Source of the DNA: a virus
Lineage: Duplodnaviria; Heunggongvirae; Uroviricota; Caudoviricetes
IMG/VR virus record: IMGVR_UViG_2713896833_000003
Location: 1 to 14,385 of that record
DNA: 14,385 nt
Reading direction: 5' to 3' (one strand)
Numbering within the stretch: position 1 is the stretch's first letter; the number at the start of each line of letters is the position of its first letter. Under the pieces are notes generated by a model. It saw only the letters and a list, made by a program, of their open reading frames with translations, had not been told where the DNA came from and made no database searches. A program made the translations under genes and the position numbers. Shown here in pieces: positions 9,714 through 14,385 of the stretch.

Positions 9714-9752
9714 TTGCATATCTCGCAACAAAAACACTTGCATAATGCGCAA
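9714..9752 (+). promoter_or_regulatory. pL/oL-like region: two 15-bp operator-like sites TTGCATATCTCGCAA and TTGCATAATGCGCAA overlapping -35/-10-like hexamers
   Basis: Sites share the TTGC(A)-N5-(C)GCAA form with sites in the cI/cro intergenic region; TTGCAT and CATAAT hexamers present; lies between the cI terminator and the leftward gene block as in lambda. Confidence 0.45.
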
Positions 9753-10177
9753 CTTCATTTTATCTTTCTTTCCAGACAAACAAACAAGGTACTAACAAAA
9801 TTTGGTTGTAACACGGCGTATGGCACATGCGTCGTTAGCGGTCTGGGGACGTTAAAGGGGACAATCCACTCCTTGCTCGGGCAAACAAACCAGGTAGCCG
9901 GAATGTGCAAGTCAATGATGATGCTGATAAGACGCCTAACCAGCGTGGCGATTCGGTTTGACGCCTGGGAAGAGACCAGGGTGCAACGATGAGGGCATTT
10001 ATGGAGCCGCGACAAAGTGTGGTGCCGTAACTGGCTAAGTGCTCTCAGCGTTGTGGTAATCCGCGAAATGGCGCGGCGGTAAGTATGGCGGGGTTACTCT
10101 TTCCCCGTTGAGGACACCGGATTGTCAGGTTGACCATACGCCTGAGTGACAACCCCACCACAACAGCCACTGCTTTG

Positions 10178-10223
10178 GCGGTACCAGTTTGTACACTTGC
10201 TTCCGGCTGGTACCGCTCTTTTT
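10178..10223 (+). terminator. Intrinsic terminator-like hairpin inside the long leader (GCGGTACCAG-N19-CTGGTACCGC then TCTTTTT)
   Basis: Perfect 10-bp inverted repeat followed by a T-tract, about 140 nt upstream of the yfdP-like start. Confidence 0.5.
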
Positions 10224-10360
10224 ACAAAACAGAGAAGAGCATCACCGGACGACGGGCTCATAACCCAATCCATCCGGGCGGCTGCCACCGCAGGTGTTCT
10301 TCTCTGTTTTGTGGAGAAACCAACCGACCTTGCAGGGTCGATATGATGAGGAACAGCAAA

Positions 10361-10723
10361 ATGGCTAGCGAACGCAGTACTGATGTGCAGGCATTTATCG
10401 GGGAGCTGGACGGCGGCGTATTTGAAACCAAAATCGGCGCAGTTCTCAGTGAAGTCGCTTCCGGTGTGATGAACACGAAAACCAAAGGTAAGGTCTCACT
10501 CAACCTGGAAATCGAACCATTTGATGAGAACCGTGTGAAAATCAAACACAAACTCTCATATGTTCGCCCGACTAACCGCGGGAAAATTTCCGAAGAAGAC
10601 ACCACCGAAACGCCGATGTATGTCAATCGCGGTGGTCGCCTGACTATTCTGCAGGAAGACCAGGGACAATTACTGACTCTTGCCGGTGAACCTGACGGAA
10701 AACTACGCGCAGCAGGTCATTAA
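10361..10723 (+). CDS. yfdP: YfdP-like cryptic-prophage protein
   Basis: ATG at 10361 gives 120 aa (MASERSTDVQAF...), the length I recall for K-12 YfdP; the ORF track extension to 10130 starts at TTG and is Cys/Arg-rich, unlike a protein. Confidence 0.6.
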   Translation: MASERSTDVQAFIGELDGGVFETKIGAVLSEVASGVMNTKTKGKVSLNLEIEPFDENRVKIKHKLSYVRPTNRGKISEEDTTETPMYVNRGGRLTILQEDQGQLLTLAGEPDGKLRAAGH

Positions 10724-10788
10724 TATCGTTCTTAATTAACTGATTATTTATCTCATCACTGAATATCTTTATATAGTGAGGACTTATT

Positions 10789-11613
10789 ATGTCTCAGAAC
10801 TTAGACGCAACCGCAATTAATCAAATCCATGCCCTTATTTCTGCTCAGGGTGTTAATGAAATTATCAGTAAGATTGGTGCCGATGCTGTGGCATTGCCTG
10901 AGAATTTCCGCATTCATGATCTGGAAAAATTTAATTTAAATCGCTTCCGTTTCCGTGGCGCGCTTTCCACTGCCAGCATCGATGATTTTACCCGTTATTC
11001 TAAAGATCTTGCAGATGAAGGCACCCGCTGCTTTATCGATGCTGATAATATGCGTGCCGTCAGTGTGCTTAACCTGGGTACTATTGATGAACCAGGTCAC
11101 GCAGATAACACCGCCACTCTCAAACTGAAAAAGACAGCACCGTTCTCTGCCCTGTTGTCTGTTAACGGCGAGCGTAACTCCCAGAAGTCACTGGCAGAAT
11201 GGATTGAAGACTGGGCCGACTACCTTGTGGGCTTTGATGCTAATGGTGACGCCATTCAGGCAACAAAAGCGGCTGCGGCGGTCCGTAAAATCACGATTGA
11301 AGCAAACCAGACCGCTGATTTTGAAGACAATGACTTCAGCGGCAAACGCTCTCTGATGGAGTCTGTCGAAGCGAAAACCAAAGACATTATGCCAGTAGCA
11401 TTTGAGTTTAAATGCGTTCCGTTTGAAGGCCTGAAAGAACGTCCGTTTAAATTACGCCTCAGCATTATCACTGGTGATCGCCCTGTACTGGTTCTGCGCA
11501 TTATTCAGCTGGAAGCAGTGCAGGAAGAAATGGCTAACGAATTTCGTGATCTGCTTGTTGAAAAATTCAAAGACAGCAAAGTAGAAACCTTTATTGGTAC
11601 TTTCACCGCCTGA
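10789..11613 (+). CDS. yfdQ: YfdQ-like protein (DUF2303 family)
   Basis: 274-aa ORF with GAGGA SD 8 nt upstream; length and gene order match the yfdQ-yfdR-yfdS-yfdT block of the K-12 CPS-53 prophage (from memory). Confidence 0.65.
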
Positions 11614-11740
11614 TTTCATTACTGCAAATGCCCCTGCGGGGGCATTTATGGAAACGTAATTAACTCAATAATCACCGGATGGTGAGGGCTTCCTTTTACC
11701 CAAACTCAGCGCGGTGCAGCGCATATACGTGGAGAACAAA

Positions 11741-12277
11741 ATGTCATTTATTAAAACTTTTTCCGGGAAGCATTTTTATTATGACAAGATAAATAAAGAC
11801 GACATCGTGATTAACGATATCGCGGTTTCCCTTTCAAATATCTGCCGCTTTGCCGGTCATCTTTCTCACTTCTACAGTGTCGCCCAACATGCGGTGCTTT
11901 GCAGCCAGCTGGTGCCGCAGGAATTTGCTTTTGAAGCGTTAATGCATGATGCAACAGAAGCGTATTGCCAGGATATTCCCGCTCCACTGAAACGCCTTCT
12001 GCCTGACTATAAACGGATGGAAGAAAAAATTGACGCCGTAATCCGTGAGAAATACGGGTTACCCCCAGTTATGAGTACGCCCGTGAAATATGCCGATCTT
12101 ATCATGCTGGCAACCGAACGCCGCGATCTCGGGCTTGATGATGGCTCTTTCTGGCCTGTACTGGAAGGCATCCCGGCAACAGAGATGTTCAACGTGATTC
12201 CACTGGCACCTAGCCATGCCTACGGGATGTTTATGGAACGTTTTAACGAGTTATCGGAGTTACGCAAATGCGCATGA
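11741..12277 (+). CDS. yfdR: HD-domain phosphohydrolase, YfdR-like
   Basis: HD-domain motifs (HLSHFYSVAQHAV ... LMHDATEAY...D); ATG at 11741 with GGAG SD gives 178 aa; stop overlaps the yfdS-like start. Confidence 0.65.
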   Translation: MSFIKTFSGKHFYYDKINKDDIVINDIAVSLSNICRFAGHLSHFYSVAQHAVLCSQLVPQEFAFEALMHDATEAYCQDIPAPLKRLLPDYKRMEEKIDAVIREKYGLPPVMSTPVKYADLIMLATERRDLGLDDGSFWPVLEGIPATEMFNVIPLAPSHAYGMFMERFNELSELRKCA

Positions 12278-12630
12278 ATGTTTTCGAAATGGAAGGGTTT
12301 CTTCGCGGGAAATGTGTACCGCGAGATCTGAAAGTGAACGAAACAAATGCTGAGTACCTGGTACGTAAATTCGACGCGCTTGAAGCTAAATGTGCGGCAC
12401 TGGAAAACAAAGTAATACCAGTGTCAACTGAACTGCCACCAGCAAATGAAAGTGTTTTGTTATTCGATGCTAACGGAGAAGGCTGGCTGATTGGCTGGCG
12501 TTCTCTCTGGTACACCTGGGGACAAAAAGAAACCGGAGAATGGCAGTGGACATTTCAGGTCGGGGACCTTGAAAACGTCAATATCACTCACTGGGCAGTA
12601 ATGCCAAAAGCACCGGAGGCTGGAGCATAA
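12268..12630 (+). CDS. yfdS: YfdS-like protein (DUF551)
   Basis: 120-aa ORF overlapping the upstream stop; stop overlaps the next start (TAATG). Confidence 0.6.
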   Translation: MRMNVFEMEGFLRGKCVPRDLKVNETNAEYLVRKFDALEAKCAALENKVIPVSTELPPANESVLLFDANGEGWLIGWRSLWYTWGQKETGEWQWTFQVGDLENVNITHWAVMPKAPEAGA

Positions 12631-12935
12631 TGACCACTTTTACCGACAAAGAACTGATTAAAGAAATTAAAGAGCGTATCAGCAGCCTTGACGTGCGAGA
12701 CGATATTGAGCGCCGTGCTTATGAAATCGCACTCCTATCTCTGGAAGTAGAACCAGATGAACGCGAAGCTTATGAATTATTCATGGAAAAGCGTTTTGGT
12801 GACTTAGTAGATCGTCGGAGAGCAAAAAACGGCGATAACGAATACATGGCATGGGATATGACTCTCGGTTGGATCGTCTGGCAGCAACGAGCTGGTATCC
12901 ATTTCTCAACAATGTCACAGCAAGAGGTGAAATAA
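12630..12935 (+). CDS. yfdT: YfdT-like protein
   Basis: 101-aa ORF translationally coupled to neighbours on both sides. Confidence 0.6.
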   Translation: MTTFTDKELIKEIKERISSLDVRDDIERRAYEIALLSLEVEPDEREAYELFMEKRFGDLVDRRRAKNGDNEYMAWDMTLGWIVWQQRAGIHFSTMSQQEVK

Positions 12936-13285
12936 TGGAGCCATACAGCCTCACACTCGATGAGGCCTGTCATTTTCTCAAGATATCCAGACCGACTGCC
13001 ATTAACTGGATACGCACAGGGCGTCTTCAGGCAACACGCAAAGATCCCACTAAGAATAAATCTCCTTACCTCACAACACGACAAGCCTGCATTGCGGCTC
13101 TTCAATCTCCGCTGCATACTGTCCAGGTGAGCGCGGGTGATGGCATAACAGAGGAAAGAAAATGTCACTCTTCCGCAGAGGTGAAATATGGTACGCCAGT
13201 TTCACATTGCCGAACGGTAAAAGATTTAAACAGTCTCTTGGAACAAAGGACAAAAGGCAGGCGACAGAACTCCATGACAAGCTAA
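12935..13285 (+). CDS. xis: Excisionase-like (Xis/AlpA-type MerR-like wHTH) recombination directionality factor
   Basis: ATG at 12935 with GAGG SD 7 nt upstream; N-terminal [30 protein letters not shown] resembles Xis-type HTH; ORF track start at 12851 would lie inside the yfdT-like gene; 3' end overlaps int by 124 bp. Confidence 0.6.
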
Positions 13286-14325
13286 AGGCTGAAGCATGGC
13301 GGGTCAGCAAACTTGGTGAAATACCTGATATAACGTTCGAGGAAGCGTGTGTCAGGTGGCTTGAAGAGAAAGCACATAAAAAATCACTGGACGATGACAA
13401 AAGCCGGATCGGATTCTGGCTTCAACATTTCGCAGGAATGCAACTAAGAGACATTACTGAATCAAAAATTTATTCAGCAATGCAGAAAATGACGAACCGG
13501 CGTCATGAGGAAAACTGGAAACTCAGGGCAGAAGCATGCAGAAAAAAAGGGAAACCTGTTCCAGAATACACGCCAAAACCAGCGTCCGTTGCAACGAAGG
13601 CTACGCATCTTTCATTTATAAAGGCCCTACTAAGAGCCGCAGAGCGTGAATGGAAAATGCTGGATAAGGCACCAATTATTAAAGTGCCTCAACCAAAGAA
13701 TAAACGGATCCGCTGGCTGGAGCCCCATGAAGCACAAAGGCTGATTGATGAATGTCCGGAGCCATTAAAGTCTGTTGTTGAATTTGCACTGGCAACAGGC
13801 TTAAGACGCTCGAACATCATCAACCTTGAATGGCAACAAATAGATATGCAGCGCCGGGTGGCATGGATAAACCCGGAAGAGAGTAAATCAAACCGCGCAA
13901 TTGGCGTTGCGCTGAATGATACTGCATGTCGCGTATTGAAAAAACAAATCGGGAATCATCACCGTTGGGTATTTGTGTACAAGGAAAGCTGTACCAAACC
14001 AGACGGAACGAAAGCGCCAACAGTAAGGAAGATGCGGTATGACGCAAACACAGCCTGGAAAGCGGCGCTGAGACGGGCTGGTATTGATGATTTCAGATTT
14101 CACGACTTGAGACACACCTGGGCAAGTTGGCTGGTTCAAGCCGGAGTCCCGTTGTCAGTGTTACAGGAAATGGGAGGCTGGGAGTCTATCGAAATGGTTC
14201 GTCGATATGCTCACCTTGCACCTAATCACCTTACCGAACACGCACGGCAAATAGACTCGATCCTGAACCCATCGGTCCCAAATTTGTCCCAGTCAAAAAA
14301 TAAGGAAGGTACTAATGATGTGTAA
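13162..14325 (+). CDS. int: Tyrosine site-specific integrase (lambda Int family)
   Basis: 387 aa; N-terminal [10 protein letters not shown] arm-binding-type region; C-terminal catalytic motifs LRRSN (Arg), HDLRHTWAS (His-x-x-Arg), VRRYAHL (Tyr); stop codon lies inside the right direct repeat. Confidence 0.9.
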
Positions 14326-14385
14326 CTTATTGATTTAAATGGTGCCGATAATAGGAGTCGAACCTACGACCTTCGCATTACGAAT
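14322..14385. repeat. Right copy of the 64-bp direct repeat (att site)
   Basis: Identical to bases 1-64; overlaps the int stop codon. Confidence 0.9.
14340..14385 (-). tRNA. thrW: tRNA-Thr(CGU) 3' portion, truncated by the window edge; probably the intact gene continuing beyond 14385
   Basis: Reverse complement equals the tRNA-Thr 3' half ending in CCA; int lies next to it, the usual arrangement for the reconstituted tRNA junction. Confidence 0.55.

Follow-up and report, generated by a model that had tools for sequence, protein, structure and literature searches.

The yfdP, yfdQ, yfdR, yfdS and yfdT genes (b2359-b2363) belong to CPS-53 (KpLE1), a cryptic prophage of Escherichia coli K-12, and their homologues in Shigella phage SfV lie in an early-left position that has been documented since publication of the SfV genome. 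The minimal multicopy suppressor of hda-185 consists of yfdQ and yfdR together with either yfdS or yfdT, and the same combination in multicopy inhibits initiation at oriC (Noguchi and Katayama 2016; PMC4776307). YfdR binds DnaA, Phe46 of domain I being important for the interaction, and competes moderately for DnaA with both DiaA and DnaB (PMC4776307). These authors also cite the SfV homologues, and theirs is the only work on these genes cited in a 2025 eLife paper. Clusters of yfdP, yfdQ and an HD-phosphatase gene are common in lambdoid early-left operons and are found whether the Rec module is lacking (LLS, ST64B) or complete (ArgO145) (PMC12315714; Genome Research 2025). Here we describe such a cluster at positions 10361-12935 of a 14,385-nucleotide (nt) stretch of caudoviricete DNA (positions 1 to 14,385 of IMG/VR record IMGVR_UViG_2713896833_000003, hereafter the window), where five genes are found between a cI-type repressor gene and the xis and int genes. 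A preliminary description, made from the sequence without database searches, had proposed that these genes resemble yfdP-T and form a host-takeover module rather than recombination functions.

The five genes are the yfdP-yfdQ-yfdR-yfdS-yfdT set carried by lambdoid prophages of the SfV/CPS-53 family, and they stand here in their original location. When the products were compared by BLASTP with the CPS-53 proteins of K-12 MG1655, all five alignments were gapless and full length. The genes, all on the + strand, are yfdP (10361-10723, 120 amino acids [aa], 99% identity [119/120]; PHROG 204 and precomputed family PF27127), yfdQ (10789-11613, 274 aa, DUF2303, 99% identity [272/274]), yfdR (11741-12277, 178 aa, an HD-superfamily phosphohydrolase, 99% identity [176/178]), yfdS (12268-12630, 120 aa, an N-terminal module followed by a C-terminal DUF551, 98% identity [118/120]) and yfdT (12630-12935, 101 aa, PHROG 660, 96% identity [97/101]). 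Significant similarity to K-12 proteins, at 96–99% identity, was therefore found throughout, and both the lengths (120, 274, 178, 120 and 101 aa) and the P-Q-R-S-T order on which the preliminary description had relied match those of CPS-53; the interval that it delimited runs exactly from the yfdP ATG through the yfdT stop codon. Several complete E. coli chromosomes match the segment at 10000-13200 with 100% identity, and in one such genome the Prokaryotic Genome Annotation Pipeline (PGAP) names the five genes yfdP, yfdQ, yfdR, ‘phage protein’ and yfdT. Matches to the block were present in 4935 of 5426 complete E. coli genomes, 1640 of which hold at least 80% of the query, and in 213 phage records including Stx2c phages, cdtI, Ayreon and 2H10. 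The identification is thus correct but already known, these being near-identical copies of well-known K-12 prophage genes, and the block itself matters little, having been annotated in thousands of E. coli genomes, sequenced in SfV in 2002 and studied as its K-12 copies in 2016.

The genes had been described as tightly packed, with overlapping stop and start codons. This holds for the distal part of the block, in which yfdR and yfdS overlap by 10 nt and yfdS/yfdT and yfdT/xis by 1 nt each (TAATG), but not for the proximal part, in which yfdP and yfdQ are 65 nt apart and yfdQ and yfdR 127 nt apart. Within the latter spacer is a GC-rich 9-bp hairpin (AAATGCCCC-TGCG-GGGGCATTT; 11626-11647, + strand) without a proper T tract, and in phage Ayreon the homologous site is annotated as a terminator. 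A Shine-Dalgarno motif could be read from the sequence 6–9 nt 5′ of all five start codons.

Comparison with CPS-53 revealed the same five genes in the same order, with the same lengths and overlaps, and a DNA identity of 97.4% over window 10342-12991. A second block of K-12 homology, at window 6278-7480, comprises yfdN and part of the O-like gene (K-12 yfdO), and in K-12 these two blocks abut directly (L002 9586/9587), indicating that CPS-53 corresponds to the present arrangement minus the immunity region at window 7481-10341. This K-12 deletion is clean and 2.86 kb long. It joins yfdO′ to the sequence beginning 19 nt ahead of the yfdP ATG, and missing as a result are the O-like gene's 5′ part, the cII-like gene, cro and cI, together with the operators and the leader. 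Homology to K-12 stops 56 nt into xis, so that an SfV-type excisionase gene seems to survive in K-12 as a stump, ypdJ (b4545); in K-12 torI follows and integration is at argW, whereas here SfV-type xis and int follow and integration is at thrW. The window therefore keeps the regulated order (cI, operators, leader, block, xis, int), and the 2.86-kb deletion turned this order into that of K-12, which accounts for the lack of an obvious control region at the K-12 genes. SfV (NC_003444) has the same layout, cro / cI / terminator / orf33 / orf32-28 / xis / int, with 97.7% DNA identity between the block and orf32-orf28 and 98.1% over window 10176-14385, through the attachment (att) site. The thrW attachment sequence is common to both, and window 1-189 matches the SfV attP flank. 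SfV differs in its immunity region and in the first half of the leader, where orf33 stands in place of window 9700-10175, and it is a viable, complete 37-kb phage carrying gtr serotype-conversion genes, whereas the present element is a 14.3-kb remnant carrying an EcoRII-type restriction-modification system and PD-T4-3.

The surroundings of the block are those expected of an early-left operon. A cI-type repressor gene encoding helix-turn-helix (HTH) and S24 peptidase domains (8966-9658, + strand; Pfam Peptidase_S24 6e-19, HTH_3 1e-10; an XRE family regulator according to PGAP) has a cro-like gene upstream of it (8608-8868, - strand) and is followed by a terminator-like hairpin (9679-9696, + strand), detected by consensus scan, with a 7-bp stem including 5 GC pairs and then TTTTCATT. 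Beyond this are two operator-like TTGC-N7-GCAA sites (9714-9728 and 9738-9752, + strand) marking a putative OL/pL region; the sole further exact copy in the window is at 8931-8945 in the cI-cro spacer, giving 3 matches where 0.57 are expected. On the far side of the block are an SfV-type excisionase gene, xis (12935-13285, + strand; PHROG 2907 excisionase 1e-50, Pfam HTH_17, annotated as xis in SfV) and an SfV-type, thrW-specific tyrosine integrase gene, int (13207-14325, + strand, PGAP coordinates; Pfam Phage_integrase 3e-48). The placement of the block between cI and xis/int, in the position of the lambda pL operon, is borne out by these operator-like sites, by the location of cI, block, xis and int in that order on a single strand and by the SfV layout. 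With the lambda pL operon (N, cIII, kil, gam, bet, exo, ea genes, xis, int) the block shares its placement and direction with respect to cI, xis and int and, presumably, transcription from a repressor-controlled promoter downstream of cI. However, lambda N, Kil, Gam, Bet and Exo show no sequence, family or fold relationship to the block proteins, and at the place equivalent to that of N there is no N-like gene but a long structured RNA leader.

The extent to which the five genes travel together was assessed in 80 IMG/VR E. coli prophage loci with identical YfdQ, the denominators varying by gene. yfdP was present in 79/80, yfdR in 76/77, full-length yfdS in 48/75, full-length yfdT in 32/74 and the present xis type in 21/71, and yfdP, yfdQ and yfdR stood at fixed spacing in 76–79 of 77–80 loci. 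Partial YfdS was found in 13 loci and partial YfdT in 15, mostly with the N-terminal ~42 residues kept and the C-termini swapped, whilst yfdS was absent from 14 loci and yfdT from 27. In a second set of 80 loci from different species (L090-L169), a YfdP homologue was encoded directly upstream of YfdQ in 79/79, YfdR within 1.5 kb downstream of YfdQ in 55/77, and YfdS and YfdT were rarely detectable. The block is therefore a mosaic composed of an obligate YfdP-YfdQ pair, a frequent YfdR and exchangeable YfdS and YfdT, and not one co-inherited unit.

The most likely natural role of the block, which we rate at about an even chance, is to restrain initiation on the host chromosome briefly as prophage induction begins. 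The block would then be the promoter-proximal coding part of a pL-type early-left operon running from cI through terminator, operator-like sites and a ~600-nt structured untranslated leader to yfdP-T, xis and int. In a lysogen it would be held off by cI together with at least one terminator-like leader hairpin, and DNA damage would switch it on by inactivating cI through its S24 self-cleaving domain; we infer both this pL control and the SOS inducibility from the layout. If the proteins act as their K-12 orthologues do, YfdR would bind DnaA domain I at Phe46 and compete with DiaA and the DnaB helicase, and an excess of YfdR with YfdQ plus YfdS or YfdT would reduce oriC initiation. A YfdQ/YfdR core would exert this brake, assisted by helper proteins that can be exchanged, and YfdP, the constant partner of YfdQ, would probably have a separate part. 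The statements of the preliminary description that YfdR binds DnaA and that yfdQRST overexpression inhibits initiation are accurate for the K-12 proteins (PMC4776307); YfdR of the window differs from K-12 YfdR at 2/178 residues, DnaA binding being known for the K-12 protein only. Parallels exist in SirA of Bacillus subtilis, whose DnaA binding depends on Phe49, equivalent to the Phe46 on which YfdR binding depends, and in lambda P, like YfdR a phage protein inhibiting host initiation (PMC4776307). YfdR, an HD-fold phosphohydrolase, is unrelated to the DiaA competitors, SirA and lambda P and, unlike other proteins that act on DnaA domain I or block initiation, depends in vivo on YfdQ together with YfdS or YfdT, its effect being seen on overexpression only.

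A number of observations weigh against a role as initiation brake. The functional data come from multicopy plasmids only, and the authors concede a possible artefact; deletion of yfdQRST alters neither initiation nor hydroxyurea resistance; YfdQ, YfdS and YfdT lack strong affinity for DnaA or YfdR in pull-downs; and yfdP is not required for the initiation effect (PMC4776307). That yfdP is dispensable for the DnaA effect yet always accompanies yfdQ points to a YfdP-YfdQ function outside the DnaA assay. YfdR itself is missing from 22/77 species loci, is confined to Enterobacterales and was found in none of the Marinobacter, Photobacterium, Vibrio, Kistimonas and Pontibacterium loci. With regard to the proposed control, a sigma-70 consensus scan between cI and yfdP found no promoter, and terminator-like hairpins precede both yfdP and yfdR. 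Finally, the present element is without any lytic genes, so that nothing is left here for which to take the host over.

The contrast drawn earlier between host takeover and recombination fares unevenly against these data. Its negative half is supported, in that no recombinase or nuclease signature was found: Pfam and PHROG scans of the five proteins gave no Red-beta/RecT, Erf, Sak, Sak4, lambda Exo/YqaJ/RecE or Gam/Abc2 family, and AlphaFold2 models of YfdQ and YfdP, the two proteins to which the fold search was limited, matched no recombinase or nuclease fold. The authors of PMC12315714 likewise deem hidden recombinases unlikely, on the grounds that such clusters coexist with a full Rec module in ArgO145. 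The positive half is supported only in part, given its dependence on overexpression, the deletion without phenotype, the dispensability of yfdP and the lack of co-inheritance of the genes.

An alternative explanation follows from the company kept by the YfdP-YfdQ pair. In Xanthomonas phage CP2 (L007 2639-3892) a YfdP-YfdQ pair, its YfdP with 39% identity, is followed by genes for Erf, an exonuclease, an endonuclease and a single-stranded DNA-binding protein (SSB), and elsewhere the neighbours are a YqaJ exonuclease and SSB (Kistimonas) or a DEDD 3′-5′ exonuclease (Photobacterium, Vibrio). The P-Q core, often with YfdR, may thus assist the phage in replicating, recombining or handling the ends of its DNA, with YfdQ working as a large homo-oligomer and the DnaA effect being a side effect of YfdR overproduction. 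Besides these DNA-metabolism neighbours and the invariable position of YfdP directly upstream of YfdQ, across the species loci as in CP2, this explanation is favoured by reports cited in PMC4776307 of weak sensitivity of yfdQ mutants to methyl methanesulfonate and H2O2, and by PDB entry 9o7m (‘YfdQ Protein’), a structure with 36 chains of a 274-aa homologue that comes from a CP2-like Xanthomonas phage and matches YfdQ at E 1e-44. The lack of any recombinase or nuclease signature reported above belongs on the other side, and we consider such an accessory function possible, well short of probable. A literature search found no publication for 9o7m. Two further identities for this entry, a virion reconstruction and a YfdP-YfdQ complex, are argued against by matches of the CP2 proteins: the CP2 major capsid protein matches capsid entries of other phages alone and not 9o7m, and the CP2 YfdP homologue and ORF36 have no PDB match whatsoever. 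The AlphaFold2 models of YfdQ and YfdP, with predicted local distance difference test (pLDDT) scores of 76 and 76, match no solved fold convincingly in fold libraries that exclude 9o7m. YfdQ is a clear member of DUF2303 (PF10065; Pfam E 2e-92, 309.7 bits against a cut-off of 26.6), and the YfdQ family comprises 1810 clusters at 50% identity (E<=0.001), nearly all of them ~270 aa.

YfdR retains the H...HD...D metal-binding motif of HD-superfamily phosphohydrolases, H50, H69-D70 and D119 aligning with identical residues of the HD protein Atu1052 (PDB 2gz4, E 4e-14), is named a 5′-deoxynucleotidase in RefSeq and falls into PHROG 318, ‘deoxyribonucleoside 5′ monophosphate phosphatase’ (E 5e-110), the PHROGs of the other four being function-unknown groups. 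The block might accordingly alter nucleotide pools or counter host defence, with YfdR hydrolysing deoxyribonucleoside monophosphates or a signalling nucleotide and YfdS and YfdT acting as anti-defence or host-modulating proteins of the Ea22 type. The module-wise exchange of YfdS and YfdT, and the occurrence of DUF551 in Ea22 variants also, are in keeping with this. YfdR, however, scored below the cut-offs for YfbR-type 5′-deoxynucleotidases, both for the equivalog model NF003009 (19.9 bits vs 122) and for PF12917 (24.4 vs 25.9), and the RefSeq name rests on the K-12 gene and not on these models. A PADLOC-DB scan matched the five proteins to no family, a result which speaks against an anti-defence role only insofar as that library holds defence proteins and not anti-defence ones. 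Taken together, we think an effect on nucleotide pools or host defence improbable as an account of the block. The assignment of DUF551 (PF04448) to YfdS residues 50-117 passes marginally, at 22.2 bits against a cut-off of 22.0. YfdP and YfdT had no family in the Pfam copy scanned, PF27127 being a newer, precomputed family carried by YfdP homologues, and an NCBIfam scan of the five proteins gave nothing useful. Comparison of YfdS with YfdT revealed no similarity that would account for their interchangeability.

Positions 1-64 (attL) of the window are an exact copy of 14322-14385 (attR), consisting of the 3′ 46 nt of the tRNA-Thr gene thrW and a further 18 nt, and attR overlaps the 3′ end of tRNA-Thr on the minus strand. 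A terminal repeat of this kind suggested a circular excised element, an interpretation rejected on finding that the same 64 nt bound an integrated 44.9-kb prophage in E. coli KFu021, where the repeat adjoins the annotated tRNA-Thr. The KFu021 prophage has its two arms represented by window 1-5347 and 5736-14385, with ~31 kb between them (Q, lysis and structural genes) deleted here and patchwork joints at 5346-5754; an open reading frame at 5272-5958 spans these joints and resembles a chimera pieced together from parts of RusA, DUF968 and methyltransferase genes. Judged from this alignment, the element is a 14.3-kb deletion remnant at thrW. Its left arm carries defence cargo near attL, namely an EcoRII-type restriction endonuclease gene (1728-2942, + strand) forming a restriction-modification pair with a C5 cytosine methyltransferase gene (2977-4452, - strand), and a PD-T4-3 (GIY-YIG) defence gene (4817-5356, + strand). 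Five Chi sites (GCTGGTGG) are present in the window at 5484, 5490, 5611, 8410 and 12436, four of the five on the - strand, against 0.39 expected from shuffles, an abundance reminiscent of those lambdoid phages that are rich in Chi and lack a Rec module (PMC12315714).

The persistence of the block in remnants stripped of lytic genes, here and in CPS-53, raises the question of whether the genes are kept for the benefit of the host, conferring stress tolerance and being expressed independently of induction. Deletion of CPS-53, yfdQ or yfdS raises H2O2 sensitivity (Wang et al. 2010, cited in PMC4776307), and the high proportion of complete E. coli genomes with matches is in line with a host benefit. 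The stress phenotypes are weak, however, and the genes lie here behind cI-controlled operators and a terminator-like hairpin; their prevalence is equally explained by frequent SfV/Stx-type prophages, given the number of phage records with matching DNA. Retention for host benefit consequently seems quite unlikely, and a transient brake on initiation remains the preferred reading of the block.

Upstream of yfdP, window 9990-10360 contains no annotated gene and as RNA folds with z = -4.5, and Rfam searches of this leader gave no family match. It consists of three parts. The first is a 123-nt element (10050-10172, + strand) which by blastn is identical at 110/123 positions (89%) to DNA ending 9 nt upstream of dicF in the Qin prophage (L005 2252-2374) and is 75% identical to the ‘dicF-like region’ of phage P1. 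The second is a hairpin (GGCGGTACCAG...CTGGTACCGC plus TCTTTTT; 10177-10223, + strand) which by folding and alignment to dicF is terminator-like and similar to the DicF 3′ end, sharing with it a GGCGG..CCGC hairpin and a T run; the 5′ 20 nt of DicF are missing here. In Qin the dicF-dicB operon occupies the equivalent location downstream of the immunity region. The stretch 10050-10226 resembles the remains of a dicF locus. A DicF small RNA at 10157-10226 was considered and discarded, as Rfam RF00039 gave no match at E<=1 over 9600-10420 or at E<=10 over 10100-10240. The predicted duplex energy between the hairpin and the ftsZ translation start was no better than that of shuffles, being reached in 288/500 and 478/500.

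The third part of the leader is a predicted conserved structured RNA (10219-10317, + strand; model match 10216-10323) with a ~22-bp basal stem, an inner hairpin A and a variable hairpin B. Homologues identified by nhmmer precede yfdP in 31/80 species loci, and the RNA is present in 76/79 E. coli prophage loci. An alignment of 29 sequences, drawn from more than 12 genera, predicts 33 pairs, and compensatory changes occur in 12 of these. The paired fraction of cells is 98%, compared with 40–61% in slid-partner controls, and the observed covariation was reached by 0/500 shuffles. A covariance model (R1) scored 114.9 bits on the + strand of the window vs 39 on the - strand, and on the training sequences 92–124 bits on the + strand, with the exception of Yersinia massiliensis L158 (51 bits), and 32–44 bits on the - strand. 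Searches with R1 added weaker + strand matches in the corresponding position for further genera, among them Serratia, Yersinia, Morganella, Proteus and Providencia, giving a total of ~47/80 loci; the distant matches keep only the basal stem and its flanks. No R1 match was found in K-12 CPS-53, Qin, CP2 or the non-enterobacterial loci. Phage P1 (L006) has two moderate R1 matches, of 27.9 bits (2485-2593) and 37.7 bits (2767-2845), located downstream of its dicF-like region and tRNA genes. In Y. massiliensis L158 an Rfam tRNA match (3250-3377; 40 bits, 128 nt) lies just upstream of the leader RNA copy.

The loop region of hairpin A (10253-10266, CGGGCTCATAACCC) exactly reproduces 14 nt from the anticodon arm of the E. 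coli initiator tRNA (metZ/W/V). Perfect copies of this 14-mer are present in 80/80 IMG/VR loci and in 15 species loci, distant genera having lost it. Hairpin A is not a tRNA gene, ARAGORN having predicted 0 genes and Rfam having given no tRNA match, and the initiator-tRNA resemblance is a lead only. The long perfect basal stem suggests a site for RNase III or other processing.

The YfdP-YfdQ linkage data and the leader RNA are the sole parts of this work that go beyond the literature consulted, and they mark where new biology may lie. YfdP-YfdQ pairs occur in Enterobacterales, Vibrionaceae, Marinobacter and Xanthomonas, in phages as well as prophages. A further interpretation, tentative and on the doubtful side in our estimation, is that the conserved entity is not the five-gene block but an early module made up of the leader RNA, with its long basal stem and, in many genera, its copy of the initiator-tRNA anticodon arm, and the obligate YfdP-YfdQ pair, usually with YfdR, in which YfdQ would form a large homo-oligomer and the leader would represent a new class of cis-acting RNA. 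The function of such a module would be of an undescribed kind, for example control of host replication or translation initiation at lytic onset, with the DnaA effect as one facet of it. Were this three-part module real, the leader would serve as a site for RNase III or for processing, or else would act as decoy or sensor towards some factor that recognizes the initiator tRNA anticodon arm.

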